Shown: positions 1-63,704 of the stretch, piece after piece
Layout: each line of letters begins with the position of its first letter
How positions within the stretch are numbered: the first letter of the stretch is position 1
Source of the DNA: Bugula neritina
Lineage: Eukaryota > Animalia > Bryozoa
Direction of reading: 5' to 3'
DNA length: 64,000 nt
Assembly (NCBI GenBank): GCA_964035545.1
Contig: OZ037765.1
Location: 3,978,698-4,042,697 of the forward strand
Position numbers and translations under genes: made by a program
The notes under the pieces: generated by a model
Database searches by the model: none
What the model was told of the DNA's origin: nothing
What the model saw: only the letters and a program-made list of their open reading frames with translations

Positions 1-790
1 TACTATGAAGTATAGTACTAGTAGTAACACAATAACTTGTGGTTGTAGTTATACACCTACACTTACAGTGAGTGTAATATTAAGTCTAATAGTAATAGTC
101 ATAGCCCATGGGCATAGCCATCAGTATCACTATGTATTAGACTTAATCTGAAAATAACTAAAACTTAGTATTAGTAATAGTTTTATGGATTAGTCTAACA
201 CTAACGTGTATTGGACTGAAACTGAAAATGACTACAACTATCACTATTAGTATTAGACTAATCTATATTACTAATACTACTAATACATTTTCAGTTTCAA
301 TCCAATACATGTTAACATATAGCACTATTACCTATCACCTATGTTAATTTATGGCTGTATTACTATGTAATAGTAATAGTAATATATAGTATATGTAATA
401 ATTAATTATAATTATGATACAATAGAAAGTCTGCTTGAGCTGAACTTGGATGGTTTTTGTTTCATGTCTGATTTATAGTAAGTGAACGATTATTTATATG
501 CCTAGTCATTAGTCTTTTACTGAAAATAATATTAAATAATATAATATAGGTACATATAGTTAAATATATATAATACATAGTGATAATATATGAACTATCT
601 ACTTATCTATTTCTACAGTATATCATTCGGAGCACATTTGAAAATAACAAAGGGGCTGATAGGTTGCAGTGCTTTTACATTTAATGTAATTAGCTTTACT
701 TTTTTATTCGTGTTGAAAATCTTCATATGTTTTTCTAGGTTGGGTTATAAACTGAGACACTATTGTTAGTGGCTCTAATATTCTGGTGAA

Positions 791-12700: not shown

Positions 12701-13646
12701 ATTGGTTACTATTTATTAGATTGCTAGTTGGTCTGCTATCCTCTGTGCAGTTACTATACTCTCTTACTGTGTTAATAATCCAACAATTAATATTAAGAGA
12801 TTTCAACTGAGACATCAATGTGACTATGATCTCTATTATTCCTGTTTTTGATATTTTCAGTGAATTTAGTATGTTGTGTATGTGTCTACTTGTTTGGGGT
12901 ACATTCAACTAGCACACTTGCCTTGTACATTCCAGTGGTTAGCCATGTATGTAATGCTTTTGTGTATCTCCTGACTTGGTGTAATGTAGTTCAGTGTTCA
13001 TGAAAAATAATATACTTTTCTTCAGAAAAGTATGTTATTTTTAGAATTAAATGTTGCAATGATTTATTAGTGATTATTACCTTTTAACTATCTGATTATC
13101 ATCAGCAATAAGTTGTATACAAAATTACCGCATCTTATCTAGTCATAACTAGTCTCTCTCTTGTGTAAGGTGAGAGCTCCTAACAGCTTTCACTGATCAT
13201 AAAATGCTTAGAAATCAATTCGATAAACCTGGACTTTATTCAAGTGATTTTACTTAAAATAATTTAAGATATTCCTAATATATTGCAGGACCAAATGATG
13301 CGACCCTGGAAGACATGTGGAGACTAATCCATGACTCCGGTACTTCCACTATAGTGATGCTGACTAACCCAGTAGAGGCGACAAAGGTTGGACTTCCTGT
13401 ACAGTCTGCTCTGTGTTTTGTGAATTTATCAACAGTTAGTTGTTGGTAATTGTATGTCTCGTATTTGTAGAAAAAGTGTTCAGTTTACTGGCCTGACAGC
13501 AGCCAAGTTGGTGTGACCTTTGGAAAGTTCAAGGTCACTCTGATAGAGGAACAGATGTTTGCCGAATATGTAGTAAGAAAACTTAAGTATACTTTCAATA
13601 AGGTGAGTCAGACTACTACTACTAGTAGTACTGCTACTACTACTAG

Positions 13647-13730
<84 letters not shown>

Positions 13731-13753
13731 CACTACTACTACCACTACCACTG

Positions 13754-13785
<32 letters not shown>

Positions 13786-13831
13786 GCTGCTACTACTGCT
13801 ACTACTACTATTACTAGTACTACCACTGCTG

Positions 13832-13889
<58 letters not shown>

Positions 13890-16800
13890 GTTTGGTCAAA
13901 ATGATATATATTCCTATCAAATAACACTCGCACTAAAAAATATTTTGGTGATTCAGGTTTCTCGACAAATAAAGCAGTTCCATTTCACTCAGTGGCCTGA
14001 CCACGGAGTTCCAACCACCTCAGGACTTCTCAGTTTCCGACACAGAGTCAAGCAAGACATGTCTGCTAGCTATAAGCCTGCTATTATCCACTGCAGGTAG
14101 GTTGTATCTGCTAGCTATAAGTCTGCTATTATCCACTGCAGGTAGGTTGTATCTGCTAGCTATAAGTCTGCTATTATCCACTGCAGGTAGGTTGTATCTG
14201 CTAGCTGTAAGCCTGCTATTATCCACTGCAGGTAGGTTGTATCTGTTAGCTATAAGTCTGCTATTATCCACTGCAGTATATACATCTGTTCATACCTTCT
14301 AAACAAGAGTGGGATACTTGTAGCGCTGGTGTGGGAAGAACTGGTACATTCATAGGACTGGATATTCTTATAGAAGAAGGTAAGACAACTACTGCTGGTG
14401 GACAAGATGGAACTGTAGATGTGATGAAATGTGTGTATAATATGAGACTTAACAGAACACAGATGGTTCAGACTCACGTATGTATTATCACTCTTATTAT
14501 TATGTCTTACTCTGTTATAAGTATATGTTTGGTGTGATTTTAATGATATAATGATATAATGTATAAGTTATATTTTGCCCTTTTGTTCTTATCAATGTAA
14601 TCTGTATTCTACCAACTGATTCATGTATAATATGCAGTATATCAGTATTTCACTCTATATTTTATGGTTCATATTCTAGGAGCAATACTCTTTCCTCTAT
14701 GAAATAATCGCCGAGGCTTTGGACTGTGGAGATACTTCCATCGTCTGCTCCCAATTCTCTGAAACATTACAGAAAATGCGTCAAGTTAGTCTTTTCTCCT
14801 TCTATTTCAAACATCACATTTTCATGAAAATATACTTCTTATTTTTACGATGTTTTGTTCTTTCTATATGCTCATATCTAGCACCCTTCACTCTGTTGGT
14901 AATGAATGAATATTATTGGTTGTTAGAGACCTGCTAGAGGTCAGAGGTCAGTGTTAGAGCAACAGTTCAGGATGGTCAACGCAGCAACAGCTTCTTCTAA
15001 GCCTCGTCAGTTAATAAGTCCAAACGCAGTTTCCAAAGAAAATGTTGAGAAAAATAGAGATGATACAGTTTTACCCAGTAGGTTCTATGTATCTGGTGTT
15101 TTTTCATCTTCTGTAGTTTTAATGTTTACACTCTGTAAAATTGAGTTATGCGATTTAATAGGGGAAAGCAATCATTTTATTCTACACTATGTCTCAATAG
15201 ACGGTTTTCTCTTCTTTATGTTACAAGTTATTTTCCCATTTTCGATTCCATGTCTCTTTGATTCAATCAATTAATCCAAGCCCATGTTGTGACCAAGTAG
15301 TGTCTATGTAGTCATCACATTGTGTCTTACAGCTGAAAGAAACAGTGTCCTGCTACCATACATTAGTGACTCACGTAATGGCTACATCAATGCAGTCTAC
15401 TGTGATGTAAGTTGAATATCTCTTCTCAATGTGAATGACTTTCCAGCAGATGGCACTGTGCATTCTGTTTGAATAATGGCGCTTTAAAGCTAGTGAATAA
15501 TATACATAATGTATGTAACTCTGTACACAGGGCTACCAGAACAGAAGGGGGTTTATTGTGACTCAGACTCCTTTGACAGATACAGCTGAAGACTTCTGGC
15601 ATATGACAGTAGACAACAAGTGCCCTGTTATAGTTTATCTGAATGACTGTCTGGTATGTAGATACCATTTGTGTAGTCCTCAGCCCTATCTGTCTCATGT
15701 GCTTTAAATTATTCAGCTACTTTTGATTGCGGACCGTTACGAAAAAAGCTGTAATGGTCCGCACACCAAATTAGCTGAATAAATAGGAAAAACATGGGAA
15801 ATCAAGCAAAATTAAAGCAAACTTATTATTTAGGTGTATTTATTGATATTTTACTAGTTTTGGGCAAAAACCCATGTTCATTAGCAACTTAATTGTGAAA
15901 AGTAGCTAAAAACTGGAGATTTCCAGTGTGTACTAAATTAAGTAAAATGACCCATATACACTTGACTGTGATAGACAACTCCTATGTGGTTTCACTTTAG
16001 AATGAGAAAGTCTATTGGCCGACCAATGGAGGTGAGAAGTTTCAGTTTGGTAAAGTAAGCATAGAGAATACATATTCTCAGGAAATACTGAATATGGAGA
16101 CAGGAGGTGGTGTGGAGACTGAGTTGACGTGTACCCATGGCAATGTAAGAGATGGGACAATTTATTTACTTGAAGTTACTTCATAACACAATGATGGTGT
16201 TTGAACGGATTATTAATTTTGTAACTTAGAATCAGACTATATTTCTTTTTTCATGAATTCATAATAATTATTATGACTTATGGTTAACTAATTGGTTAAC
16301 TCATTGGTATAGAATGTAGTTAGTATACTAAGGCATCATCAAGTAGACATTTGCAGCTTATTTCTGTGCATCAGAACTACCTGGTGACTTCAGTGCTTCG
16401 GAAGACCGATGGTCTGTCAAATAAAGTAACAAAAAATTTATCAAGTCATAGACTTTAAAAATAATAATTGGTGGACTTTTGACAATAATAATAGACGCTA
16501 GACGAAACACTTAGAATCAAGTTGTGCTTGATTCTGGTCAGATATTCAGCCTAAAAATGACATTTGATAATTCATAACTGTGGGAGACCGTCTTTAATAA
16601 TATGCTGCTTTGCTGGTGCATTGACTTATTTGGTTTATTGATATGAATTGTGAATATCTATGGTATTACTGCTAATATATATTGTGATACTACTATATAG
16701 GTAATGCACATAACAGCTCTGTTTTGACCAACATTTTAATGATTTGTGAACTTTTTGTAGACCAGCCATGAAGTTACTCTGTTAGAAGTGAAGATTGCTG

Positions 16801-18010
16801 ATGGTAGACTACTTTCAACCAATCAGCTTACAGCTCTCTGTAATAAACTAGAGAAGTATACAACTGCAGGTCATCCCCCCATTACAGTACAGTGTCTGTA
16901 AGTTACCTTCCCCCCTCCCTCCTCCTATCAGCAGCATATCTGTGATATTTGTAAACTCTAATATGACTCTAATATATGCATAATTTCAACCTGTGATCTT
17001 ATGAAAGCAGTTTTGTAAAATTATTATATTCAGTTTGGAATTATCATCACTTGTCTGTCAAAAGATATGAATACAGAGTAATTATCCTCCCTGTGTTGTA
17101 GTAATGGTAGTAGACTGAGTGGTATTCTAGTGATAGCCATGAATCTCTACCTCAGAGCTCGTATGGAACAGGAAGTTGATGTTGTTTTGGAGGTGAAACT
17201 GGCTCGTAGAAGTAGACCTCAGTTTATAGCTGACTCGGTAAGTTCTCTACTCATCACACAGTCTCTATGAACATACTCTCTCTTTATTTTACTTTATAAA
17301 GACTCGATCTGTGAATATACTAGTGAGAAACTACAGTGTTTGCTAATTGGGTTGTGGTCAATCACTTATGAATGTATTTAATTACAATTACATGAGAATT
17401 TGTCAATTGCAATTACAATTATAATTACAGTTGAAATAAATGTGCTTAATTACAATTACATTGTAATTGTAATTAATTACAATTACTTTTGTTGTCACAG
17501 GAGACAAATAAAAGTTATACAATCTCACTTCTGGGGTCCAACTACCCCGGGCAATTTTTACAACGGAAAACTTTCCTTGTTCTCAACAGTAACGAATAGG
17601 GTGATAAATTTGACATAAAATTAATCTGAACTTTTTATTAAACAGTAGGCAAGGCAGGAAAAATATAAATCTCATAGGATTTTCAAATTTAAAGTAATTG
17701 CTATATAATTATAAAGTAATTGTAAAATTTAATTACATTAGCAATGTAATTAATTACAATTACATTTTTATACATAAATTACAAATTTCATGCAATTACT
17801 TAAAAAATGTAATTAATTACAACCAATTACAATTGCAAATTACAATTACTCCAACCTTGCTGCTAAATATATTATTTTAATATCTTCATTGTGAAATATA
17901 AAATTGCATATACTTATTAAAATTCAATGTTTTAGGAGTCGTTTGACCTTCTCTATGAATTTGTGTCCTCTTATCTCTCTGACTTTAATGATTACTCCAA
18001 CTTCCGCTAG
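791..18010 (+). CDS. Receptor-type protein tyrosine phosphatase, tandem copy 1 (PAN-PAN-unknown-FN3-like-TM-PTP D1-PTP D2), ~1497 aa, 28 coding exons
   Basis: Manually spliced GT-AG exons: 791-842 (signal peptide MVLLKLQVAVFVLATVD), 1919-2173, 3288-3551, 4130-4627, 6005-6322, 6621-6718, 6976-7162, 7354-7466, 8577-8787, 9071-9442, 9585-9738 (TM), 9822-9892, 10484-10722, 11481-11565, 12031-12101, 12399-12435, 13289-13386, 13471-13602, 13957-14096, 14324-14477, 14680-14784, 14927-15077, 15333-15406, 15531-15653, 16001-16144, 16761-16897, 17102-17237, 17936-18010. Phases are consistent and the total is 4494 nt. D1 motifs: NRFKNI, DYANANYI, FIACQGP, IVMLT, KCSVYWP, WPDHGVP, HCSAGVGRTG, QTHEQY. D2 motifs: YINA, FIVTQTP, DFW, QCLNGSRLSG. 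Ends DYSNFR*. Confidence 0.9.
10771..10980. mobile_element. Non-autonomous inverted-repeat element with internal GGGTTT/AGGGTT-like repeats (also at ~42078-42285 and ~60811-61010)
   Basis: ggcacaggtggcaaagtaggtaa...ttacctactttccatttgtgcc inverted arms; present in all three copies. Confidence 0.55.
11017..11393. mobile_element. MITE, PIF/Harbinger-like termini (also at ~42323-42680 and ~61050-61427)
   Basis: GGCCTGGCCTCAC...GTGTGGCCAGGCC terminal inverted repeats with subterminal aatcacacaaaatt/atttcgtgtgatt; TA(A)-type flanks. Confidence 0.7.
11771..12012. repeat. 25-bp minisatellite (~10 units) just upstream of the exon 15 acceptor
   Basis: Unit tatatttcatacttgtaatatacta; only about 1-2 units in copies 2 and 3. 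Confidence 0.9.
13612..13886. repeat. (ACT)n microsatellite in intron 18 (shorter ACT/GCT version at ~44737-45000 in copy 2)
   Basis: Directly visible; starts about 9 nt after the exon 18 donor. Confidence 0.95.
14061..14276 (+). repeat. 45-bp minisatellite duplicating the exon 19 end and 5' splice site (4 intronic units plus a partial exonic unit)
   Basis: Unit gtaggttgtatctgctagctataagtctgctattatccactgcag; intronic units 14097-14276. Confidence 0.95.
17348..17859. mobile_element. hAT-like MITE in intron 27, copy 1 only
   Basis: Termini tgggttgtggtcaat...attactccaaccttg with subterminal AATTAC arrays. Degenerate 8-bp TSD ttgctaat/ctgctaaa; the empty site ttgctaaa is in copy 2 (~48826). Confidence 0.7.
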
Positions 18011-18390
18011 AACTTGGCTCTCATCTGCAGCTGTAGGAAGATTTTATCTGATGGATTTACACTACACTATGTCTTCTAGACACACATGCTACTTTTTTCC
18101 ATATTTTGCAAAGTTTGTTATTCAATATTAATACTTTAGGTAATATTTTTGATATTATAAAATGTATTTTTTGATTTCTATTATATTTCTTAGCAAAGTT
18201 AATTATTCAATAGCAATGCTTTATTAAGTAATATTTTTGATATTATAAATTTATGTATTTTTTTATTTCCATTATATTTCTTAGCATATCACGTATGCAA
18301 AGAAACTCTTTTATGCTATTTCTATTTCATAGTTTAATGTAAATTTTGATTTTTGTATTTATCTATTGATGTTTCTAAGTGATTCGATCA

Positions 18391-18396
18391 AATAAA
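18391..18396 (+). terminator. Candidate polyadenylation signal of copy 1
   Basis: AATAAA about 380 nt after the stop; conserved at the equivalent position after copy 2 (~49262). The region is AT-rich, so this is weak evidence. Confidence 0.4.
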
Positions 18397-19469
18397 TTAA
18401 AATGTGATAATGAAACCATCTAAAACTTAAAATGAAAAATGCAGTTAGCAGTGCCTATAATGCTATCTGTCAGCTAAAATTAAGTTGGTGCTACTTTAAA
18501 TTTATTTTATACATCCCTTATCACAATCGGACACAGCTTACACTTTAAATTATCAGTTCAAGCTCATAGCATATTATTTGCCTTTTCTGGCAGCAATTTG
18601 TTTAGATCATTTAATTCTTGCATTTTGAAATTTCACAAGCTTTCCTAAGTTATCTCAATGTTAAGGAGTCATGACTACTCATACAGATATTCCAACCTTT
18701 CTCCCTGACTTACTCCAACTTTCATAACTAATCTATCATCTCAACCAATGAGGAAGCATGATGTGTATTTGTTGGTCATCACATGAGTCCAAAACACGAA
18801 TTCTCCCCATATTGTATATTTTATGATAATGATACAGTTCACAAGACAGTGTTGGCCAGAGACCTGGCACAACGAAGCTGTAATTAACATACTATTCCCA
18901 ACAAATGAGAGACACTACTACTTGCAAATTTAGTAGCTTGTTTTTAAATATTTATATTATTTGAGGAGTTTCAAGATGTAATTTGCTAGCAGTTTCTACA
19001 TTTCATTTTACAGCAAGATGCTCTACATCTAAATAACTATGCAAACTGTAAACACTGCAAACTATTGGTGTTTTATATTCAGTAGTTGTTGATTTACCTC
19101 AGATGCTATACCTGCTTGCAGTATATTAAATTTAGACCCAAACCAAATTACAAGCAGTCTTATTTAACAAAGAGTCACTGTGTTCATACATTGCAAGTAG
19201 TCTTGATCTGCAAAGACTTACTGTGTTCACATCAGCTAAGACCCACACATATAATTTCATGCAGCAAATAATAGCATTCAATGCATAAATTATTACAACT
19301 TGTTTATCAAGATAAGTATCGTCCATGCCTGCAGTATTTTGTTACTTCCATGAAATACTAATTAATAATAAAGGGTCCAAATTTCTTAAATATAAAACAA
19401 AAATGGTGCAAATATTGTTTTTGTTTCATAAACATGTGGTATGCAAACCTTGGCTTATTATTTATAGAC

Positions 19470-19660: not shown

Positions 19661-20223
19661 TTAAGCCTTCGACATTTTCAAAGAAATGCCATCATCATCA
19701 TGGGCTTATGGTTCGTTAGTTTCGAAAAGGCATTGAACTAAAACGTCCTTTTCTTTCAATCATCAATGATAGGCTATAGGTTAACAATAACTATTACTTT
19801 TGAAAAGTCTTAGCCTATTACTCAGGGCAGTCTCCGAAAGATAATATTCATTTTCAAAATAATCTTAGTGAAAGGTAGCCAGTTTTGAAAGTAGACAAAT
19901 TAGAATTAAATGACACTCACACTGGCAAAGCTTGAAGTTTATAAATAATCAATTAATTCAAGTTTCAAAGTGACTGACACTGGACAGAAATACAAGTACG
20001 CATAAATATTGTAATTAATATTATCATTTATTTATAACTTGTATGATATCCATATGATATTCAACATTTAGATAACGGCTAAAACTAAAAGTAACTCACT
20101 CACTAGGACTCAGTGGGACTAATTCTAATAGCAATACCAAATACTAATGAAGTAATATAATACTTAATACTAATAGTAATACTAATACTCTGTTCATAGG
20201 CATCCACATACTTATAGTGATAA

Positions 20224-20529
20224 TGTTATGTTTTTCAGATTTAGGGTTTATATGCTATCCAGAGAGTCTATTTATCTAGTATAGAACTGCACCAGGCTAA
20301 GTCGAGTGAACGAGTATATTTTATACACAACTATACATCATAAAAACACGATACATTATTTCTAACAAGTTACACATCCAATCTATTTCACACTCTAGCT
20401 TCGACTGAGTTAGCAGCGGGAAACTACAATTGCTGCTAACTATCAACTACGCTAATTGGCTATCCATTGTTCCGGGTCAATTACGCGACCCTACATGTTG
20501 TGCTGCTGGTAGTTCCACGAACCACCACA
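20224..20529 (-). repeat. 3' LTR of gypsy element 1
   Basis: Direct repeat of 27414-27719; next to the purine-rich tract GGTGGGGGCGG on the minus strand. Confidence 0.95.
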
Positions 20530-20810
20530 CCGCCCCCACCAGCAGAAAGCCATCTTTCTGATATATATATAAAAAAAAACATTCAATAGTAATTGCATAC
20601 ATCAGTGGACAAAAATAATACATAATATACAGGAAGAGACATAATAATACACAGATTCGTTATAACGATCCGTTGCATACAATTGGCCAGCTGTAGATAG
20701 ACGAGGAATACTAGCTAGCTGTGGTATTAGACAAGAAATAACCTGTCTAGCAGTTAAGCATTTGCACGAGTTTGGTTCTTCACCAAATGTGGAGTATTCT
20801 GGGTAGCATA

Positions 20811-21598
20811 CTAGAGTCCTTGTTGGGCACGCCGGTGCTTGGCTTGGCATGTACGCAGTTTCCGTTTCATACGGCATACGGATCCCTTCAGCTGGAAGAG
20901 TCCTGTGGTAGTGTTGAGTAGATCTGGCGCCAGCTGGGTGAACTCTTCTTGTAATCGTAGGAGGCGTTCTTCTACTGTAGCTAGTCGTACTGGGTCTGGG
21001 GACGGTGTCCGTCTGCGGCGTAAGGGTGGACTGGGGGACCTGGTCCGTCTCTTCGCCGGGGTAGGGGAGATCTCTCCTTCTTCTGGATATGTAGTTTCCT
21101 CGGGGGTGTAGGTAATTGGAGGGCGGTCAGACACCAACGGGGATTGTTGGCGGGCGTTGTCTAATACACGTTGGAACCCCGAGGATAGAACGGCTAGTAG
21201 CATGGCCTTCTTTACCAGAGGTCGTATATATGTGAGGAACTCCGGGTACAGCTTAGCGTCGACCACATAGTTTTCTCCAGGGAAACAGCCCACCGCTCTG
21301 TGTCTGGTGACGGGGTAGGGATACACATCATTGTACCCGCAGGGGCAGAAGGTCAGTAGGAGATGAGCATTGACGTGTAGTTTAAGGGAGCGGTGAGAGG
21401 CGCAATCTTCACCACAGATCTGGCATCTCGTCCGTCCTCTGGACCCCCAGGCTGTTTCTATTTCTTCTTCGGTTTGTGGAGACACCCACCGCCAACGGCG
21501 GCGTAGTGGCTCAGGCCGGTCACCACTAGCATAGTCCTCCGGATACGGAGCGGGAAGTGTTCTATCCCGTACCCTGGTTGTAGCGGGTCGAGTGTAAT
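20811..21598 (-). CDS. ORF3 of gypsy element 1: C2H2/C2HC zinc fingers, Arg/Ser-Pro tract and coiled coil; predicted exon 2 of a spliced mRNA (exon 1 = 27382-27340)
   Basis: Open frame with no ATG near its 5' end. Contains C-x2-C-x12-H-x3-H and C-x-C-x12-H-x4-C. TACTAAC branch point (21624-21618) and TTTTTCAG acceptor (AG at 21600-21599); in frame with the AAG|GTGAGC donor in gag. Confidence 0.7.
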
Positions 21599-21911
21599 CT
21601 GAAAAAGTTTCAACAGTGTTAGTACAGTACACTGCTGTGTTGTCAGCTTGAACAGCTTGGCAACTCCTAATTCAGTTACCTCGTAGAGATTAATGATAGT
21701 GAATAGTCAGATAGAACCGTATTGCAATGAGATTATAAAATTCTCTAAGTCAAACTGAGTTCTTACTACGGTATTTCACTAACCTATCTCCAGCTCGATT
21801 GACTCAGTGAGTCAGAGCTGAGCGATGCCATCTAGTTTCGTATTAAGATATAGTTAACTCACCCCACGATCTGTTGTCGTAAAACATACTGAATATGTGA
21901 AATGGTTTGAA

Positions 21912-24900
21912 CTACTGCTTAGAAACACGTCTACTCTTGACTGCATCAGCGTATGAAAAGATCGAGCAACGTGGTTGGGGTGCGTGATTAAGACTTTGTG
22001 CACCCGGCGGATGAATTTTGTTTCTACTTCCGCCGATACAAAAGTTGATATTTCCGTGGTGTTGACAACTCCCACATTTGCTCGATTCTTTTCTCGTACG
22101 GTTTTCCCCTAGACTTTCATGTGTGCCGCTTTTAACGCAGTCACATACGAAGTCCTTCAAGTATGCGGGGGGTTGCCTCGTACGCTGTCCCCTTTCTAGG
22201 GGGGGTGACATGCTTGCCGGTTCGTTAGTAGGGGCCTCTAATGGCGTCTCTACTTCACCGTCAGCAGTCACCTCTTCTTGTTCTCCGGATGGAGCCCCTC
22301 CCTCCGTGGGGGTTTGCACTTCCGGAACCGGCTCGGTTTCTGGAAGTGATGGAATTAGACTTGGCGGTGGCGGACTCGCTTCTGTTGCCAAAAGCTGTCG
22401 CTCCTCTCTCACCAAGTTTTCTTCCCGCGGTATGACCACTTCGTATTCAGGTCCATGCCGCCGTCGCCCGCGCGTTGTTGTCTGCCTCCTGGGCTCTAAC
22501 AACGGGGGGGCTTCTCCCACTCCGCCGGGGCTAGCCCAATACGGTTTCAAGCGAGACTCATTCTGGATAGACACCTGTCCTGAGCGCTCAATCTTGTACG
22601 TATGATTGGGCATAGCCTCGACGACCACGTAGGGGCCTACGAACTTAGGCTTCAGCTTATCAGCCTGTCCGCGGCGCCTACGGTAATTGACCATCCACAC
22701 CTTATCTCCTCTTTGATAGAGGGGTGGTTCATCGGAATCTTCGTGCCGCACCTTCCACTGCTGTTGACGCAGTATCTCGTGTGCGGCCTTCATCCGTTCC
22801 ACTAGTTCACTGGCATACTCGTGAACTGAGTTATCTTGCTCTGGAACGTGATAGGTGAGATGGTCAGGGACACGAGTCTCTCTCCCGAGCATCAAGAGGT
22901 TTGGGGTCTCACCAGAACTGGTGTGTGGGGTGCTACGGTATGCACGCATGACTTGCGGCAACACCGTATCCCATTCCTCTTGACCTCGTCCAAGGAGGAG
23001 ACTCCGGAGCGCATCACCTAGCATCCGGTTGTTGCGCTCCACCACCCCGTTACCTTGAGGGTGGTAGGGGGTGGTCCTGCTCTGATTTACTCCCCAGAGG
23101 TGGCAAAGGTCGCTCATCAGTTGAGACTGGAATTGAGCGCCTTGATCAGAGTGTATCTGTTCGGGAAGCCCAAAATAACAGAATACGTGTTGGTCTAGTG
23201 CCCTGGCCACTGTTGGGGCTGATGCATCTGGGATAGCCAGAGCATCCGCCCACCTAGTAAAGTGGTCGGTTAGTACTAGGATCCAATTATTGCCTCTGGG
23301 GGTCAGGGGCATGGGTCCTACCAGGTCTACAGCGACTACTTGCCAGGGCCTACCAGCATATAGCCTCCGCCGTCCTGCTTCACCAGGGGGGCGGCTATGC
23401 TTACTGGCCTGGCAGATCTCACACTGTTTGACTCTGAGCCGGACGTCACGCTCCATCTGCGGCCAATACCACCGGAGTCGTAATTTGGACATCACTCGCT
23501 TGACCCCTGCGTGGGCCTGCTTGTGAGTATCCCAAATCAACTCACGGCGGATGGCTGTGGGGCAGACTACCCTCTTCCTTTCCGGGTGTCTGCCGCTGGC
23601 AGCTAGAGAGATGGTTAGCAACCCATCCTGCCCGATCCGCAGCGAGTCCCAACGCTGACAGTATAGCCGGAACTCGGCGCATCCCTGTCTTATGCGTTCC
23701 TCGCTGGGTCGTCGCCCTTCCCTTTTGGCCCGGTAGATGTCTGCCACGACTCCAGGCAGCTCTTCTTGGAGCTTCTTCAGCTCTCGAACATTACCGGCCA
23801 GTACAGGGTTGGCGCGGAGGTTTTGTACATCCTCCGGGGACTCATCAACTCTTTGCCTGAGTTGACCTTGATCCCAGTCAAACGGTGCTCCGTGATGAGC
23901 CAGCGTCTCCAACTCGCATCGTGGGGGACCTCCATCCCTCCTCTCGATGTTGAGACACTGTTTGCAACCTCCGTCAGGTCGGCGACTCAACCCATCCGCA
24001 TTGCTGTGTCTCTTGCCCGGTCGGTGTTCGATCCGGTACGAGAATTCAGCTAGGATTTCGAGCCACCGGGCGACCTGACTAGAGGGCTCTGCTCTCCTGC
24101 ACAACCAGATCAGCGAGGCATGATCCGTACGCAGCCGGAACTTCCTGCCATATAGGTATGGTCTGAAGTGCTTCACTGACTTGATTACTGCCAGCAGCTC
24201 CTTGCGGGTAGTGCAGTAATTTCGTTCAGCGGGAGAGAGAGACTTGCTGTAGTAGGCTACTACTACCTCTCGGCCTTCCTGCACTTGCGACAGCACAGCG
24301 CCAACATTCTGGTCACTGGCGTCCGTGTCTAGGATGTACTCCAGAGTGGGGTCTGGGTAGGCCAAGATGGGCGCCGTTAGGAGGCAGCCCTTGAGGCGGT
24401 CGAACGCTTCTTGTTCGACTAGAGTCCACTGCCACGTCACTCCCTTTGCGGTAAGCCGGTTTAACGGCTGGGCTATGCCCGCAAAGTCTGGTATGTATTG
24501 CCTGTAATACCCTACCAGCCCCAAGAAAGCCCGGAGTCCGGTCAAGTCTTGAGGGGTGACCCAGTCTTCTACTGCCCGTACCTTTTCGGGATCCGTTGCC
24601 ACGCCGTTTCGACCGACAACGTGCCCCAGGTACTTGACCTCCGGCTGCAACAGAGCGCACTTGGAAGGTTTGAGCTTAAGACCGGCACCTCGGAGTCTCT
24701 CGAAAACCTCCTGCAGACGACTGACATGTGTCTCGAAGTCTGGAGAGATTACGATGACATCATCGAGGTAGACCAGCAGTGTCTTCCAATGGAGTCCGCT
24801 AAGGACTTGTTCCATCAGCCTCTGGAAGGTGGCTGGGGCGGAGGTTAACCCGAAGGGCAGCACCTTCCACTTCCACAAACCGTCCCGTGTGATAAACGCC

Positions 24901-26480
24901 GCTTTCTCTTGGGCGTCGGGACTCAGAGGAACCTGCCAATAGCCGCTTAGCAAGTCTAACGTACTGAAGTACTTGCTGCCGGCTAGGGCGTCCAATGACT
25001 CGTCAATACGAGGTAGAGGGTAGGCGTCCTGTATGGTTACGCTATTGAGTTTGCGGTAGTCCACACAGAACCGCCAACTGCCGTCTTTCTTCCGGACCAG
25101 TACGACTGGCGAGCTCCACGCACTATGGGCGGGCTCTATCAGTCCCCGGTCCAGAAGATCCCGTACTTGTCGGCTAACCTTCTCTTTCTCCGGCCCCAGC
25201 CTGCGTGTGGGCTGCCAGACAGGGACTGTCCCTGCAGTCAGCGGTATTTCGTGTCTGACAATTCCAGTCAGTCCCACGTCATGCTCTCCGCTGCTGAACA
25301 CATCACCGTAGTCGCGTAGTAACTTGGCCATAGCCTGGCGCTCTCTGTTACTCGCGCAGCCGTTACTGGCCGTCTCGTATAACTCCCGGAGATGTGTTGG
25401 GACTGCCCCTCGTCCTTGAATAGGGTGTCGAGGGAGTGCCTCTGTCGCATCACCCAGCGACGGGCCTACGTCTCCCTCTTGAACAGAGTGAAAACGGCCC
25501 AGCATCGACCCAGCCGGGAGCTTGATAGGCTCGGTAAAGGGGTTGACGCACTGCACTAAGATCTCCCCTTGCTCAGTCAGCTGGTTCAGACTGCTGGCAA
25601 GTTGGATCTTTTCGTGCGCGCCTTCAACCACCCCGAGTCCAGAGATCCGGCTACTATTCACCCTGCAGTGAATGGTAGCCCGGGAGCGGCCTGGTATGGT
25701 ACGGTTGCGTACCACTTGCACACCTCCCACTAAAGGGCAGCCGAACTTGTCGACGCAGGCGAGTTCCCGCCCGGACATCATCATTGCGGATCTGCTAAAA
25801 TCTATGTGACATCCGTGCCGTTTAAGGAACGGCATCCCGAGGATAGCATCCTCCTTGAGCTGACTGACGATGAACGTCTCTTGGATCGTTTGATCGCGGA
25901 CTCGTCCCGTCAGCTCAATTATACCATAGAAGGGAAGGCACGACCCGTCAGCTAGGGTGCCGTATTCCCCTTCGTATGCTTCCATCTCGCCCCTGACCCT
26001 AGCACTGAGGGTGTCGAAGAGTTGGCGGCTTAAGAGGTTTGTGGTACAGCCCGAATCAATGAGAAAAGTAACAGCTTTGCCTTCCAGTTTACCGGGCAAG
26101 AAATAGCTGTTCCCATGGGGCTGTACCTGAACTCTCCCTTCAGGCCTTACTCTCGCAGGGAGTACCTCCCTCGCTTTGGGTCGCGAAGGAGGTCTCTTGG
26201 GGCGGTGACGGGTAGGCCTCGGGGGTGCCGAGGCTAGATCCTCAGCTACCTTTGTGTGCTCCCATCCAGATTCTTGGACTTGCAGCCCTGTGAATCTGTT
26301 GTGAAGGGGCATAGAAAAGGCAGCCGCGGGGCGAAGCCCCTTGCTGGTCCGTCGTGGCTGTTGCCACTGTTGGTTGCCAGTACGCGGTACCCGTCTGGGT
26401 GACCTGCGTTTCTTCTTCCCTAGAGGTTTCATCGTCGGCCCGCGGAAGGTGGGAACATCTGCGGGCCGCGGTAGTTTAAC
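21912..26480 (-). CDS. pol: Pol (protease-RT-RNase H-integrase), probably translated by -1 frameshift from gag
   Basis: FLIDSGC protease; RFCVDYRKLN, LPFGL and YLDD RT; LDTDAS and RTDH RNase H; H-x3-H...CEIC plus DDE integrase; GPY motif. The ORF overlaps the gag end in the -1 frame. Confidence 0.95.
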   Translation of the reverse strand, partial: VKLPRPADVPTFRGPTMKPLGKKKRRSPRRVPRTGNQQWQQPRRTSKGLRPAAAFSMPLHNRFTGLQVQESGWEHTKVAEDLASAPPRPTRHRPKRPPSRPKAREVLPARVRPEGRVQVQPHGNSYFLPGKLEGKAVTFLIDSGCTTNLLSRQLFDTLSARVRGEMEAYEGEYGTLADGSCLPFYGIIELTGRVRDQTIQETFIVSQLKEDAILGMPFLKRHGCHIDFSRSAMMMSGRELACVDKFGCPLVGGVQVVRNRTIPGRSRATIHCRVNSSRISGLGVVEGAHEKIQLASSLNQLTEQGEILVQCVNPFTEPIKLPAGSMLGRFHSVQEGDVGPSLGDATEALPRHPIQGRGAVPTHLRELYETASNGCASNRERQAMAKLLRDYGDVFSSGEHDVGLTGIVRHEIPLTAGTVPVWQPTRRLGPEKEKVSRQVRDLLDRGLIEPAHSAWSSPVVLVRKKDGSWRFCVDYRKLNSVTIQDAYPLPRIDESLDALAGSKYFSTLDLLSGYWQVPLSPDAQEKAAFITRDGLWKWKVLPFGLTSAPATFQRLMEQVLSGLHWKTLLVYLDDVIVISPDFETHVSRLQEVFERLRGAGLKLKPSKCALLQPEVKYLGHVVGRNGVATDPEKVRAVEDWVTPQDLTGLRAFLGLVGYYRQYIPDFAGIAQPLNRLTAKGVTWQWTLVEQEAFDRLKGCLLTAPILAYPDPTLEYILDTDASDQNVGAVLSQVQEGREVVVAYYSKSLSPAERNYCTTRKELLAVIKSVKHFRPYLYGRKFRLRTDHASLIWLCRRAEPSSQVARWLEILAEFSYRIEHRPGKRHSNADGLSRRPDGGCKQCLNIERRDGGPPRCELETLAHHGAPFDWDQGQLRQRVDESPEDVQNLRANPVLAGNVRELKKLQEELPGVVADIYRAKREGRRPSEERIRQGCAEFRLYCQRWDSLRIGQDGLLTISLAASGRHPERKRVVCPTAIRRELIWDTHKQAHAGVKRVMSKLRLRWYWPQMERDVRLRVKQCEICQASKHSRPPGEAGRRRLYAGRPWQVVAVDLVGPMPLTPRGNNWILVLTDHFTRWADALAIPDASAPTVARALDQHVFCYFGLPEQIHSDQGAQFQSQLMSDLCHLWGVNQSRTTPYHPQGNGVVERNNRMLGDALRSLLLGRGQEEWDTVLPQVMRAYRSTPHTSSGETPNLLMLGRETRVPDHLTYHVPEQDNSVHEYASELVERMKAAHEILRQQQWKVRHEDSDEPPLYQRGDKVWMVNYRRRRGQADKLKPKFVGPYVVVEAMPNHTYKIERSGQVSIQNESRLKPYWASPGGVGEAPPLLEPRRQTTTRGRRRHGPEYEVVIPREENLVREERQLLATEASPPPPSLIPSLPETEPVPEVQTPTEGGAPSGEQEEVTADGEVETPLEAPTNEPASMSPPLERGQRTRQPPAYLKDFVCDCVKSGTHESLGENRTRKESSKCGSCQHHGNINFCIGGSRNKIHPPGAQSLNHAPQPRCSIFSYADAVKSRRVSKQ

Positions 26481-27382
26481 CCCTGATTTAGGAAGGGACA
26501 ATATCGGCGGAAATGTCCTTGATTTCCGCACTCCCAGCAAAAACTGACTGTTTCTCCCTGTGGCGGCGCCGATGGCCGCATGGGCTCAGGGGCGGTACTC
26601 ACTGGGTTTTGTGGTGTCAGTGTTGCTATCAGCTTGGCTAGCATGTCCGTCAGTTGAGTGACTTTTGATGCCGTCGCCAACTGGGACACGGCAGCCGCGG
26701 CGGGGGTTTCCTCCCCTTGTCCCGCGGCCGTGTCTGCGCAGTCTATCTCCACTTGGCGGGAGCTTCCGCGACTTTTATGCATTTGGTTAGCTAGGAGGTA
26801 AGCTTCCCCCTCAGTCAGAGCATCTTCAACGGTGGTGACTCCCCTAGCTAGAAACTGGTGGTGGAGACCCAGATCGTCGACAGATGCTATGAAAGCGTCG
26901 AGGGTGTACCTCTCGCGGTTGACTGGGGGCAAGTCGCTGTACGCGATCTGTGCCAGCTTCATGACCGCGGCGGCATGCTCCCGCAGCGGGGTGCGGGGAT
27001 CACGCCGCAACCTCTGTAATCGGGCCCTGGCATCTGTAGCCGAGAGGCCAAAGCGGGCCCGCAGAGAAGCAAAGATATTATCAATGTCTACGCCCAGCCC
27101 ATAGGGCTTGGCTTTGTCCATCAATGCCATTCTAAGCTTCAGCAGGGCCACCCTAGGGGGCCACTGAGCGACGTCCATTACGTCGCTAAACTCTTGAATA
27201 AATTGTTCCACCTCCTCTTCACCCGTGAAGGTGGGCGCCTTTAACCTGTAGCGGTCTTCAGCTAGTTCTCGCGGAACCCTTCGCTCTTCTACTACATGGT
27301 TAACAGGCATTGTCTCTACAGCATTGTCTCTACGCTCACCTTCGATTGCCGGTGGTTGGATTTCAGCATTGTCAGTCTCCAT
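26429..27382 (-). CDS. gag: Gag (317 aa) with CCHC zinc knuckle
   Basis: ATG just after the PBS; APTFTGEEEVEQFI capsid-like start; CWECGNQGHFRRYC knuckle. Confidence 0.92.
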   Translation of the reverse strand: METDNAEIQPPAIEGERRDNAVETMPVNHVVEERRVPRELAEDRYRLKAPTFTGEEEVEQFIQEFSDVMDVAQWPPRVALLKLRMALMDKAKPYGLGVDIDNIFASLRARFGLSATDARARLQRLRRDPRTPLREHAAAVMKLAQIAYSDLPPVNRERYTLDAFIASVDDLGLHHQFLARGVTTVEDALTEGEAYLLANQMHKSRGSSRQVEIDCADTAAGQGEETPAAAAVSQLATASKVTQLTDMLAKLIATLTPQNPVSTAPEPMRPSAPPQGETVSFCWECGNQGHFRRYCPFLNQGLNYRGPQMFPPSAGRR

Positions 27383-27394
27383 CTTGGATGCACT

Positions 27395-27412
27395 ATCCCA
27401 CCGCTGCCACCA
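27395..27412 (-). promoter_or_regulatory. Primer binding site, tRNA-Leu type
   Basis: Minus strand TGGTGGCAGCGGTGGGAT, 1 nt from the LTR. Complementary to the 3' end (AUCCCACCGCUGCCACCA) that I recall for animal tRNA-Leu(AAG/TAG). Confidence 0.8.
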
Positions 27413-27413
27413 C

Positions 27414-27719
27414 TGTTATGTTTTTCAGATTTAGGGTTGATATGCTATCCAGAGAGTCTATTTATCTAGTATAGAACTGCACCAGGCTAAGTCGAGTGAA
27501 CGAGTATATTTTATACACAACTATACATCATAAAAACACGATACATTATTTCTAACAAGTTACACATCCAATCTATTTCACACTCTAGCTTCGACTGAGT
27601 TAGCAGCGGGAAACTACAATTGCTGCTAACTATCAACTACGCTAATTGGCTATCCATTGTTCCGGGTCAATTACGCGACCCTACATGTTGTGCTGCTGGT
27701 AGTTCCACGAACCACCACA
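27414..27719 (-). repeat. 5' LTR of gypsy element 1
   Basis: Direct repeat of 20224-20529; next to the PBS. Confidence 0.95.
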
Positions 27720-28532
27720 ATAATACTATGGAGTATAGTACTAGTAGTAACACAATAACTTGTGGTTGTAGTTATACACCTACACTTACAGTGAGTGTAA
27801 TATTAAGTCTAATAGTAATAGTCATAGCCCATGGGCATAGCCATCAGTATCACTATGTTTTAGACTTAGTCTGAAAATAACTATAACTTAATATTAGTAA
27901 TAGTTTTATGGATTAGTCTAACACTAACATGTATTGGACTGAAACTGAAAATGACTACAACTATCACTATTAGTATTAGACTAATCTATATTACTAATAC
28001 TACTAATACATTTTCAATTTCAATCCAATACATGTTAACTAGCACTATTACCTATACCTATGTTAATTTATGGCTGTATTACTATGTAATAGTAATAGTA
28101 ATATATAGTATATGTAATAATTAATTTTAATTTTGATACAATAGAAAGTCTGTTTTAACTGAACTTGGATGGTTTTTGTTTCATGTCTGATTTATAGTAA
28201 GTGAACGATTATTTATATGCCTAGTCAGTAGTCTTTTACTGAAAATAATATAAAATAATATAATATAGGTACATATAGTTAAATATATATAATACATAGT
28301 GATAATAGATGAACTATATTTAGTGCAATATTACTAGTATGGGCTATCTATTTCTACAGTATCTCACTAGGAGCACATTAGAAAACAACAAAGGGGCTGA
28401 TGGGTTGCAGTGCTTTTTCATGTAGTGTAATTAGCTTTACTTTTTTTATTCGTGTTGAAACTCTTCATATGTATTTCTAGGTTGGGTTATAAACTGAGAC
28501 ACTATCGTTAGTTGCTCTAATATTCTGGTGAA

Positions 28533-31500
28533 ATGGTGCTGCTGAAGTTGCAAGTAGCTGTATTTGTGTTAGCAACTGTTGATGGTGAGTGACTTCTTGA
28601 TTATTATTTCAGCTGCAGTTCAATAATTTCTAACTGTAGGTTTGATTAATTGTGCAAATGCATGTTTTAATGCAGTTGACTGTATTCAGCACAGCATTCT
28701 ATATATAAAAGCTGTTGCTGATATGAATATTTATGTCAAATGAACTGCCTAAGTGATGACTTTTTCAACCACACTTACATCATAACTGTGCTGGTTGATA
28801 AGACATACAGCTACCTGTTATAGACATTACTGCTAGTTCCCTGTAATACATGAATGTCTCTAACTTCCTCTTACTATTCATTATATTCTTGTTTGTTTAG
28901 TAAATGGAACACTTAATATACCCTTTGTTGAACGTATTTCAGCATACACTCAATCCTTTCATTTGCTAGCTGCAGTATCGTGAGCTGCTCCCTTCATATT
29001 GTGTAGTCAATAAAACTGCATTTGATAATTTATTCACTGGAACTATTTTAGCAATCTTTTCTTTTTACTTCCCTCTTGAAGTTTTTTCGAGAAATCAGTT
29101 CTTTGTTATGGATTATATATGCACTCAGAATTTTAATTTTTTGTGAAAATGCTAAATGTATGTAATCGACCACCATTCAAGTATGAGTATTTTTTCCAAG
29201 AATAGAGCTCAGTGAAAAGTATGTGATTTGTTAGTTAATTTATTCTCACTATAAACAAGCAATTTTGTCATTTGCTATTTGCAGCAAAAGTAGTACTTCT
29301 CTCTTTAAATCTATTCAAGAACCTAACCATTAAAAGCTTTCTATTTAAATTTATTGAAGTAAGAATATTGTCACTTTGATAGCTTAGCCATGTTTGCTGA
29401 GATTAGTAGAAACTAGAGAGAAATCTTGATAACTGAATTTAGAGATTGACTCCTCAACTTAGGAAAGTCCTTTAGTATTTTGAGTTTCTTAGCTTCTTTG
29501 TTGTAAATCCAGGGTAATAATATATTACCATCAGTAAACTAAGATCTCCCACACTCTTGTTTTTTTGTTTGTCTGGAGAATTCTTATGGGGAAGCTTTGT
29601 CTATCTGTATTTCTACTATGTTTTATTTTAAACAAAACTTTACCTTTACTGTTTCAATTTTCAGCTTTAACCTGTGACTGGACATCAGGTGTGGGTAGAC
29701 AAGATCCTCACATAACATTTGGTAGCATAAAGACTCTCTCTGTAAACAGTGAAGATGAGTGTAGAGCTCAGTGTATGCAGCAGACATCATTTATATGTGC
29801 CTCAATAAACTACAGAACTGATGATGGAAACTGTCAACTGTTAGCAGAGAATACTCAGACTGCTACTAGTAGTTCTGATAGTCAGTGGAGATACTCTGTA
29901 AGACCAGACTGTGCTGGTGAGTATAAAGTGATATTGAAGTTTGGATGAAAGTGTAGAGTAGTTATACTAGACTATTACTCTAAAATGTAATCCAGAAACT
30001 CCCAATCTCCAGTGATTTGGGTACTAGGAAAAAATTAAGGGAAATACTTTGTTCATGCACAATTATTCATATTTTTTTCAATAACTTGTATACAATTTGC
30101 TGTACCGTGCACAATAATGCCCTAATATAAGGCATTGACATAGGAGGTGCCCAGGTGGTACTTGAAATCTTAGTGTCATTGAATAAGGTACACGGGCTAA
30201 ATAGTTTTAGAACCAGTGCTTTAGAGTTTAGATGGTAGAAAATAAATTGTGGATTTAATCATTTTTACCTAGTATATAATTTCTATGATTCCCTCACATT
30301 TTTCACAAGCTTATTCTTATTCTATGATTCTCTCCCGCTATTCTTGCCAAGTCATGTAGGTGTCTTTTCCTACTGCATGTATGTAGGATTTTTAGTTTAA
30401 ATTAATGACTGAAATTAGAAATGAAATTATAAAACAAACTTTCATTTCATACAATATAATATACAGTCAGTAAGGTTGAAAAATGTGAGCGTAGTTAAAT
30501 ATATTTTTGTAGATAAGTCTTGCAAATTTTAAGCGGGCTCTGTCGAACTTTAAAGAGAGGCAACCATAAAATTAGTAGCAAGTTTCTGTTTTAATTGTAT
30601 TGCTGAGAAGTAACTATTAATTATTTTGTAGTAGTTGTAATGTTGAAGAGGAATTTATTTTTTCTTTCTCTTTGCTTCTGCTTTTTCCAAGTAGTAGGCC
30701 TAAAGTGCAATATTTGCAGTTTTTCTCTTAATATGTACCACACCACATATTTCTTGAAATTAAAATATTACAACTTTATTTTTAGGGATTAGCTCTAAGA
30801 GTGTGACAAGAGAAAACCTGTTCTTTTATTTCTTTATTAAAGCCACATGTACTTTGAAACGTAAAATCCTTACTAACTATTTTTCAAACTTCTGCCCTTA
30901 GCTCTAACTTATTATATGATTCCTTATTAATGTTTCTTCACCTAGTTATTAAATATTAGCATTTGTTTTGATAGTTGATAGTTGCTGCAGTTGTGTAGCT
31001 TTATTTTTACTTATCATTCATTTGTCACTATAAGCTTAAATATTATTTTACAGGAATATGGCAGCCATGGACAGCTACTAGAGGTAGCTATTTAAACAGT
31101 GGAGTAGTAAAGTCAAAAAATAAAAGCACATCAGTCCTTAGAGACTGTATGAGTTTCTGTTTAGAAGATGAAGACATCAGTTATAACTGTAGTTCAATAG
31201 TGAAGTCAGTGAGTGGAGATCAATGTGAGATTGTCAACAAGAGATCAGATGATACCGGAGTGACACCAGAAAAACATACAGACTACCAGTACTTTAACCT
31301 CCCACTCTGGTATTCAGGTATGAGTGAAACTTTTGATTTTTAATTTGTGTATAAGTTATATTTAAACTAATACTAATATTATTTTATATTAATAATATTG
31401 AAAAAGCTAGTTTTTTTATCATTTCAATATAACCAATGAAACTGCACATGTATAGTTTAATAAAGATGTATATTGTTTATTGAAAGTAAGTTTACCAAGA

Positions 31501-62301: not shown

Positions 62302-62442
62302 GTACTTATATTACTATTATTATGTCTTATATATTTGATGTGTGCAATCGTGCGTGTTGTATATGATGTATATATAATATGATAATTATGGCTTCAAAAT
62401 ACATATAGTATAATATAATTTTCATATGGCTATAATATTTAT

Positions 62443-62497
<55 letters not shown>

Positions 62498-62607
62498 TCT
62501 ATAATTAAAAATGAATCAAAAGAACTGAATATTTCGAAAAATAGAGTATTTATATTTGGTACTAATACAATTTTGGATATAAAAATAAATTTAGATCTTC
62601 ATTTATT

Positions 62608-62652
62608 GACTACAATATTGTTTCACGTAGTGCGAGCTACGATCATCAGGTC
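62608..62652 (-). ncRNA. Second hammerhead ribozyme copy (inverted pLTR)
   Basis: Reverse complement of 63494-63538 with one change in the stem II loop. Confidence 0.83.
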
Positions 62653-62746
62653 GTTGTGTGTACGCTTGAGTGATTTTGTTTTGGAATTAGTATTGTTAGT
62701 GTATTACTACGCTGGAATGTTTTAACTAGCGTCTGTTAAGTGCATA

Positions 62747-63424
62747 TTGTGGTACAACCCACCTTTCAGTTCAACAGTAAAAACCAAAATAGGGAAGAAA
62801 TTTCTTCAAATCATCAACAAATGCTTTCCACCATCCAACCAACTAAGTAAAATTTTCAATAGGAAAACCATAAAAATTAGCTATTCATGCATGCCCAACA
62901 TAAAAAATATTATTGATGGCTCGAACCATCACAAACTTAAAACCACACACACCCCTACTACCGCTACTAAACTAAATAACACACAATGTAACTGCAAACA
63001 ACCTTCCCACTGTCCATTAAATGGTAAATGCTTATACAAAGACGTAATATACCAAGCAACTGTAACAAGACATGATAATAATTCCAGCCATTCATACATA
63101 GGACTCTGTTCGACTGCCTTCAAAACCAGATTCAATAACCACAAAGCCTCTTTCCTACATGCAGATAAAGCCAACAGCACGCAACTCAGCAGACACATCT
63201 GGAATTTAAAAGACAACAACACGAAATTCAGCTTAAAATGGAATATTTTAAAGATTTGCAAATCATACTCAAACCTAACCAACAGATGTAACTTATGCAA
63301 CTATGAGAAGTATATTATTTTAAAACAACCGGAATTATCTTCCCTCAACAAACGAAAAGAGCTTTCCACCACATGTAGACATAAACGCAAATTTTTACTT
63401 GCGCACTTAACAGACGCTAGTTAA
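62747..63424 (+). pseudogene. C-terminal fragment of the Penelope ORF (GIY-YIG endonuclease domain)
   Basis: WYNPPFS...SYSCMPN...CNC-x5-CPLNGKC...VIYQA...YIG...FKTRFNNH...CNLCNYEK...CRH. The RT core is missing. Confidence 0.88.
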
Positions 63425-63493
63425 AACATTCCAGCGTAGTAATACACTAACAATACTAATTTCAAAACAAAATTACTCAAGCGTACACACAAC

Positions 63494-63587: not shown

Positions 63588-63704
<117 letters not shown>

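Follow-up and report, generated by a model that had tools for sequence, protein, structure and literature searches.

A predicted zinc-finger/coiled-coil gene, very likely spliced from the gag start, in a young Ty3/gypsy element of Bugula neritina

Introduction

Regulatory accessory genes are regarded as a hallmark of complex retroviruses, and the env gene of retroviruses and errantiviruses is made from a spliced subgenomic RNA. Among animal gypsy elements, the only tested case found in a literature search of a 3' non-env ORF reached by splicing from gag-frame exons is CERV, from the C. elegans Ty3/gypsy element Cer1, which is required for gRNA export (PMC10309623). CERV is a 517 aa protein encoded by 5 exons, with a Gag-derived N-terminal zipper, a C4-type loop, and a G-protein-like domain, and it has no homologs beyond nematodes (PMC10309623). 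Bdelloid LTR elements carry non-env ORF3s of the GDSL, DEDDy, CC, and TM types (PMC5408684), and in plants, additional ORFs such as Grande gene23 and that of Retand lie 3' of pol (PMC7264820).

The element described here lies in a 64,000-nt stretch of Bugula neritina DNA (hereafter the window). As in CERV, a gag-frame exon is very likely joined to a 3' non-env ORF (ORF3), judging by predicted signals and a sister protein, P0023. Unlike CERV, the ORF3 product is a 276-aa protein from 2 exons whose leader is 14 aa long, and it carries C2H2 and C2HC fingers and a C-terminal coiled coil. In a comparison with CERV as published, no counterpart of its G-protein-like domain was recognised, size, ligand pattern, and models all differ, and no shared fold or homology was found. 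ORF3 resembles errantivirus and retroviral env in position and expression route and differs in having no signal peptide, TM anchor, or listed fusion-protein match. Like the bdelloid ORF3s, it is a non-env gene, probably captured, in the ORF3 slot of an animal LTR element, whereas those are enzymes or membrane proteins, and the word "zinc" is absent from the main text of their description (PMC5408684). The plant additional ORFs and the fungal brtn are likewise accessory, partly nuclear, and located 3' of pol, and regulation has been proposed as their role, but they are mostly antisense, driven by their own promoter, and unspliced to gag.

Results

Element architecture and predicted splice

The host element is a Ty3/gypsy element of 7,496 bp, with the PR-RT-RH-IN order, LTRs, polypurine tract, target site duplication (TSD, 4 bp), and primer-binding site, which we take to be of the tRNA-Leu type (Table 1). 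The 306-bp LTRs differ by 1 mismatch, and an empty paralogous insertion site is present in the window at 51066-51069. The gypsy element is young.

Table 1. Features of the gypsy element and of ORF3, with positions in the window.
Feature	Position	Strand	Remarks
TSD, 5' side	27720..27723	.	4 bp; flanks overlap by 4 bp on empty paralog 51066-51069
5' LTR	27414..27719	-	306 bp, TG...CA; TATAAAA at 27515
U3 inverted repeat	27598..27631	-	10-bp perfect, 14-nt spacer; 1/500 shuffles equally long
Primer-binding site	27395..27412	-	from sequence
gag ORF	26429..27382	-	317 aa, one CCHC knuckle
Exon 1, coding part	27340..27382	-	first 14 codons of gag + 1 nt; leader shared with sister protein P0023
Splice donor AG/GTGAG	27335..27341	-	encodes Gag E-G-E; sole occurrence in element
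Predicted intron	21599..27339	-	5,741 nt
pol ORF	21912..26585	-	PR, RT, RH, IN, SH3; -1 frame relative to gag
Predicted intron-only RNA hairpin	21791..21820	-	candidate response element; z -2.45
Predicted 9-bp hairpin enclosing branch point	21611..21637	-	pair probability >=0.9, three contexts
Branch point TACTAAC	21618..21624	-	
Pyrimidine tract and splice acceptor CAG/AT	21597..21607	-	
ORF3 coding exon 2	20811..21598	-	788 nt including stop
Finger 1, C2H2	21363..21425	-	classical spacing
Finger 2, C-x-C-x12-H-x4-C	21285..21347	-	C2HC-like
Basic Arg/Ser/Pro tract	21009..21053	-	subfamily-specific
C-terminal heptad coiled coil	20823..20987	-	basic end; best-conserved region
Polypurine tract	20530..20540	-	G-rich
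3' LTR	20224..20529	-	
TSD, 3' side	20220..20223	.	4 bp

The gag ATG lies at 27382, the donor GAAG/GTGAG is cut at 27340/27339, and the acceptor, TTTTTCAG/AT, is cut at 21599/21598. Since both exon ends are in phase 1, the joined exons (43+788 = 831 nt) give a product of 276 aa plus stop. The ORF3 frame is open from 21671 to 20811, and its first Met is reached only 132 residues past the acceptor. The first-pass annotation had reported near-identical LTRs, an intact same-strand ORF in the space separating pol from the 3' LTR, lacking an ATG close to its start, and a donor, branch point, and acceptor giving an in-frame 276-aa join, and all of these were found where it had placed them. On the 7.5-kb sense strand, AG/GTRAG occurs a single time, as the donor; the acceptor, likewise, is the one place where TACTAAC precedes a pyrimidine run and CAG. 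In 20,000 Markov simulations of a 352-nt segment, chance yielded the strict acceptor pattern in 0.17% and the loose pattern in 4.9%. The 27340/21598 joint was absent among the joints listed (15 of 64 for run X1, 15 of 18 for run X2); the 20 contigs of run X1 are of low depth and leave the acceptor-side bin 21582-21783 uncovered, and contigs as such can demonstrate presence, not absence.

Sister sequences at the splice sites

One of the 141 ORF3-family proteins, P0023, carries the joined Gag-leader/ORF3 form, as protein sequence only. It belongs to a sister subfamily (53% identity to the window ORF3), and at 5,320 nt its contig falls short of the 6,572 nt that run from ATG to stop in the window element. 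Residues 1-14 of P0023 are identical (14/14) to the N-terminus of the Gag homolog P0138, and 22 of 120 Gag homologs match this leader at 11 or more of the 14 positions. From residue 15 onward P0023 continues with D-H-T-R, which the acceptor encodes; unspliced sisters have S/L-D-H-T at this point.

The donor site is reached by 51 of the 120 Gag homologs, which keep E-G-E in 45/50, 45/51, and 51/51 cases; the neighboring positions 10-13 and 17-21 are variable, but E-G-E is not alone in being conserved in the Gag N-terminus, as R38 (29/29) and E39 (28/29) show. At the acceptor, S or L precedes D/G in 32 of 37 pattern matches, as the AG/ boundary demands, one of the 32 (P0260) being a chance match elsewhere in its protein. 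Further upstream, 10 homologs read V-Y..L-H-C against 2 with V-Y.T-N, and in the window, the other frame has H-C flanked by stops; judged from these peptides, the sisters appear to keep the DNA upstream of the acceptor and not its reading frame. Searches for sister-copy DNA returned no match in metagenome, viral, or genome contigs, and tblastn of phages was also empty. ORF3 is very likely expressed by splicing from the gag start.

The ORF3 protein

The ORF3 product is predicted to be a nuclear zinc-finger/coiled-coil protein. It represents a multi-member family with 140 close homologs in which the coiled coil is kept, and a chance ORF was rejected on this family-wide conservation. Each of the eight Cys/His ligands is kept in at least 91% of aligned close homologs (ligands 1-4 in 89/90, 86/93, 91/100, and 96/102; ligands 5-8 in 101/103, 97/103, 105/106, and 127/131). 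By mean column identity, the coiled coil stands at 0.88 and the fingers at 0.76-0.81, against 0.45 for the linker, and 4/4 ORF3 variants listed in run X2 are synonymous.

Finger 1 conforms to C-x2-C-x3-F-x5-L-x2-H-x3-H, with the ligands and the L conserved. At its F position the close family has C, R, or L; of 44 distant homologs, 25 keep the F and 36 the L. Bases are read through helix positions -1, +3, and +6 of a finger, which here are S, A, and L (74/74, 47/74, and 72/74); Arg occupies +2 and +5, and the inter-finger linker is hydrophobic, 5 residues long, and without TGEKP. In linker and -1/+3/+6 residues, ORF3 departs from classical C2H2 DNA-binding arrays.

Both Cys/His patterns of the first-pass annotation (C-x2-C-x12-H-x3-H and C-x-C-x12-H-x4-C) and its coiled coil stand, and the ligands that it had singled out are those conserved among sisters. 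Its basic tract, presumably similar to a bipartite NLS, does not characterise the close family: just 1 of 84 close homologs has the Arg/Ser tract ahead of the coiled coil, although half of the long distant homologs (14 of 28) carry a basic tract of some form. A bZIP was rejected, the tract being Pro-rich, coil in the model, and absent in 83 of 84 close homologs, with GCN4 matched at E 0.19. The absence of a signal peptide or TM anchor, as first annotated, agrees with a peak 19-residue hydropathy of 1.24, this judgment being made by hydropathy scan only. Together with the P0023 junction and the ligand conservation, the missing TM segment supports the original proposal of a spliced, conserved non-env accessory ORF.

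No good nuclear export signal was found in ORF3, which has two loose NES-like matches, one within finger 1. Homodimer prediction scored 0.08 against a mark of 0.32. Foldseek retrieved no match at E <= 0.001 from PDB and viral structures, and all Pfam matches, including finger 1, fell below cut-off. The best Z in a VIA fold search was 6.2, confined to the long helix and matching generic coiled coil; for the finger domain folded alone (pLDDT 61), it was 3.5.

A profile search reached 117 clusters, among them bryozoan gene models (XP_067940964.1, XP_067944745.1, KAF6037488.1, and KAF6040923.1), which are uncharacterised C2H2 genes. These share a homologous double-finger domain with ORF3 (E 6e-33 to 7e-5, cluster representatives) and, in some, the coiled-coil end, but are annotated as cellular genes, and some have a doubled domain. 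The named distant homologs are such bryozoan models, two labelled C2H2-domain proteins, and psi-K-x-E motifs are present. Since the domain tree, a quick one, is unrooted with 29 of 57 branches open, the direction of capture is not readable from it.

Discussion

Our preferred reading, at a probability of roughly 0.4, is that ORF3 encodes a CERV/Rev-like regulator of the element's unspliced RNA. The strong splice signals would make spliced RNA the default, and the hairpin over the branch point may damp splicing; the ORF3 protein would oligomerise through its coiled coil and bind an intron-only RNA structure, which would help the full-length RNA to be exported or to persist. An RNA-level role is favored by the S/A/L and Arg residues of the finger helix, which are poor for sequence-specific DNA reading, by the predicted hairpins at the intron 3' end, and by CERV, a gypsy gene of equal layout needed for gRNA export. 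One sister peptide (P0025) shows both arms of the intron-only hairpin when read across frames, and 17 of 1000 shuffles were as stable as the branch-point hairpin. Against this reading stand the want of a good export signal, the lack of a structural link to CERV, and the modest hairpins (z about -2.3 to -2.5), which fall outside the 12 best of 186 element windows.

With a somewhat lower probability, the same spliced gene could encode instead a dimeric DNA- or chromatin-binding transcription regulator that would target the LTR, whether as transactivator, as anti-silencer, or as self-repressor, and was probably captured from a host C2H2 family. The bryozoan C2H2 gene models of equal layout with psi-K-x-E motifs, and the matches of the wide profile to fingers of SALL3/4, ZBTB48, and HIC2 (E 6e-6 at best; GCN4 weakly), fit a transcription factor at least equally well. 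The classical spacing of finger 1 and weak Foldseek matches, mostly to DNA-bound C2H2 arrays (best E 0.26), point the same way, as does the perfect inverted repeat in U3, a candidate dimeric-factor site or RNA stem. This is countered by the hydrophobic +6 residue, the presence of just two fingers, the short linker, and the prolines that part the basic tract, itself rare in the close family, from the zipper.

An unlikely alternative makes the spliced protein an adaptor that targets integration, tethers to a host complex, or blocks a host silencing factor with its coiled coil; atypical zinc fingers often bind proteins and the coiled coil is the best-conserved region, but no search pointed to a partner and the coiled-coil matches are generic. 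It is quite improbable that ORF3, though a real gene, owes most of its translation to an internal Met or a separate transcript, with the Gag-leader splice minor. Among 33 homologs covering the acceptor, 30 carry a Met ahead of finger 1, and in 19 a Met stands immediately before the acceptor, so an internal start is also possible there; against it, the window copy has no such Met, P0023 carries the Gag leader despite also having an internal Met, and both splice sites are conserved. That ORF3 is a decayed env or a small fusogen is largely refuted: an env remnant was rejected on the missing TM segment (a hydropathy of 1.6 is reached by 6 of 64 homologs in the close group and 3 of 52 in the distant one), the protein begins with the acidic Gag leader rather than a signal peptide, and its Cys/His spacing is of zinc-finger type. 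The ORF3 matches listed from Pfam, Foldseek, and profile searches include no F- or gB-type fusion protein.

More broadly, and rather doubtfully, the element may represent an animal gypsy class, widespread and as yet undescribed, with an independently evolved circuit of the complex-retrovirus type, in which a host-exchanged zinc-finger gene is spliced to the Gag start, structured intron signals set the balance of spliced and unspliced RNA, and the spliced RNA also undergoes reverse transcription and integration. A literature search (Repbase and Dfam outside its scope) found no description of the ORF3 family; the CERV precedent makes the architecture less novel and leaves the novelty of the protein family unaffected. 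A second, apparently unrelated family that relies on a gag-leader splice would show repeated origins of such control in retrotransposons. ORF3 offers a small protein with defined RNA and DNA sites for studying the export of intron-containing RNA or the evasion of silencing, and it connects a mobile gene with uncharacterised bryozoan zinc-finger genes, through capture or domestication.

Element structure and genomic setting

The Ty3/gypsy element is bounded by LTRs of 306 bp each, with one mismatch between the pair, and a paralogous site lacking the insertion confirms its 4 bp TSD. Gag is open (317 aa), as is the pol frame, which spans 1,557 codons and contains PR, RT, RH, IN, and SH3 domains. 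The surrounding host DNA forms a tandem triplication that also has internal tandem repeats, and the element is inserted in one copy only. A G-TTA-AAC heptamer near the end of gag is followed by a GC-rich stem, which together we take to be the likely -1 frameshift signal for gag-pol. The conserved-looking spacer of ~110 aa between protease and RT has no Pfam match and is, we presume, possibly a degenerate dUTPase-like fold. In pol, an in-frame one-codon indel separates the window copy from most contigs of sequencing run X2, and contig depth summed over pol was ~3x that over gag and ORF3, perhaps owing to related families sharing pol.

Coordinates of the element, its predicted signals, and host features (window positions)
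Feature	Position	Strand	Remark
Ty3/gypsy element	20224-27719	minus	
Predicted gag donor	27340/27339		
Predicted ORF3 acceptor	21599/21598		
Predicted intron	21599-27339		
Branch-point hairpin	21611-21637		predicted
Second hairpin	21791-21820		predicted
Upper stem of second hairpin	21801-21815	minus	
Most stable RNA window	23000-23079	minus	
Protease-RT spacer	about 25450-25800	minus	
G-TTA-AAC heptamer	26474-26480	minus	
Empty paralogous site	51066-51069		
PAN-domain exon	29538-29948		in triplicated host region
Host tandem triplication	1-19000, 27720-51000, 51000-64000		

Evidence for the probable splicing of ORF3 to gag

[quoted passage not shown] AG/GTRAG occurs a single time in the element, as does TACTAAC with a pyrimidine run and then CAG after it; in simulations of the acceptor segment, the strict acceptor pattern arose by chance in 0.17% and the loose pattern in 4.9%.

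The strongest evidence for the splice is P0023, a sister ORF3 protein and the only one among 141 proteins to have the joined form. Residues 1-14 of P0023 are identical (14/14) to the N-terminus of the Gag homolog P0138, and residue 15 starts the acceptor-encoded D-H-T-R, where unspliced sisters have S/L-D-H-T. Other JGI calls in the homolog set begin at Val and run through the intron end, suggesting that the JGI gene caller ignores introns, and in the P0023 contig DNA the two joined parts presumably lie side by side. This contig is 5,320 nt long, compared with an ATG-to-stop span of 6,572 nt in the window element. Since a spliced transcript would reach only ~1.5 kb, the contig most likely carries a genomic insertion of reverse-transcribed spliced RNA, suggesting a non-autonomous derivative with the accessory gene alone that arose from a retrotransposed spliced copy.

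The donor-coding E-G-E is exact in 40 of 51 Gag N-termini of differing lengths, with the third position kept in all 51; other Gag residues nearby are equally conserved. At the acceptor, S/L precedes D/G in 32 of 37 pattern matches (1 of the 32 by chance), and the DNA upstream is common to sisters but in different frames, as expected of an intron end. The 27340/21598 junction was not seen among the joints listed for runs X1 (15 of 64) and X2 (15 of 18), which are uninformative on the splice.

The branch point lies inside a predicted 9-bp hairpin whose pairing begins at the branch A (pair probability of 0.9 or more; equally stable shuffles 17/1000). Judging from codons, the V-Y and H-C residues of 10 sister peptides would be compatible with both arms being kept and the loop being one base longer. 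A second predicted hairpin (z -2.45) is confined to the intron, and both of its arms are matched across frames in one sister peptide; its upper stem holds two inverted TGACTCA sites, which we take to be AP-1-like. When the element's 186 windows are ranked by stability, neither hairpin comes in the top 12. The most stable window (z -6.9, mononucleotide shuffle) lies within integrase-coding sequence and is another candidate cis element.

Conservation and predicted structure of the ORF3 protein

Of 1,364 candidates, a single-sequence search picked out 72 as ORF3 homologs; searching with a profile gave 134 (120 of the 134 listed). The Cys/His ligands, for which conservation had been put forward as a check, are indeed conserved, with each of the eight kept in 91-99% of the homologs that cover it. 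Column identity averages 0.88 for the coiled coil, 0.76 and 0.81 for the fingers, and 0.45 for the linker (140/140 homologs aligned for both sets of figures). Among variants listed for run X2, 4/4 in ORF3 were synonymous versus 23/35 tested in pol, although these numbers are small. A full HMMER scan yielded 117 clusters at E <=0.001. Aligning 42 close and distant members shows five invariant ligands and a further two with conservation of at least 90%; the spacing of the last ligand of finger 2 is variable. When 20 distant representatives were looked up, the four organism-named clusters were all bryozoan (Watersipora subatra, Bugula neritina), which makes a bryozoan or a related animal a plausible host. 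The distant relatives P0275/P0369, P0316, and P0376 have the double-finger domain in two tandem copies, P0275/P0369 and P0376 among them being gene models from bryozoans.

The AlphaFold model (mean pLDDT 70.8, pTM 0.41) shows a helix, finger 1, finger 2 (predicted poorly), two helices, a linker that is disordered, and a C-terminal helix of 53 residues. Fold searches gave no significant match; the wide profile matched fingers of the classical C2H2 type in SALL and ZBTB proteins, with a best E of 6e-6. The basic tract described in the first-pass annotation held up in part: among close homologs its Arg/Ser form is restricted to this subfamily (1/84), while a basic tract is present in 14/28 long distant homologs.

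Possible function of ORF3

The likeness of the ORF3 gene to CERV, the spliced non-env gene of the C. elegans Ty3/gypsy element Cer1, lies in its predicted layout. We tentatively favor a CERV/Rev-like role for the product (probability roughly 0.4), and we infer every functional step as follows. Optimal splice signals would strip gag-pol from most transcripts, the hairpin would dampen the acceptor, and the spliced product would feed back to favor full-length RNA.

Nearly as likely, though still doubtful, is that the protein acts as a DNA-level regulator, a reading favored by a finger of classical type, the coiled coil, the host-like bryozoan relatives, and a 10-bp perfect inverted repeat in U3 (matched by 1/500 shuffles). 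In the helix of finger 1, S, A, and L occupy the positions that usually read bases, with Arg at +2 and +5, a pattern that suits backbone, RNA, or protein binding over sequence-specific DNA reading. An adaptor function is unlikely.

Against the splice, an in-frame Met lies close to the acceptor in many sisters, and 30/33 have one before finger 1. In the window copy, ORF3 does lack an ATG near its start, as had been claimed, with the first Met after the acceptor at residue 132, beyond both fingers. Production of ORF3 by internal initiation is quite improbable, and splicing to the gag start is highly probable. An env identity is very unlikely given the missing TM-grade hydrophobic stretch: the maximum hydropathy of 1.24 is below TM grade, in agreement with the earlier call of no convincing TM anchor, and 1.6 is reached by 6/64 close and 3/52 distant homologs.

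In the literature, non-env ORF3s are listed for bdelloids (PMC5408684), additional ORFs for plants (PMC7264820), and unspliced sORFs are covered for MDG1 elements (PMC11952523); no mention of such a gene was found in the available portions of PMC13524379 or PMC8556966. Literature searches of main texts found no description of the ORF3 family, and ORF3 may already be annotated but undiscussed in Repbase, Dfam, or GyDB. The zinc-finger/coiled-coil family is apparently undescribed, and ORF3 is a real, conserved, non-env accessory gene that is very likely spliced.
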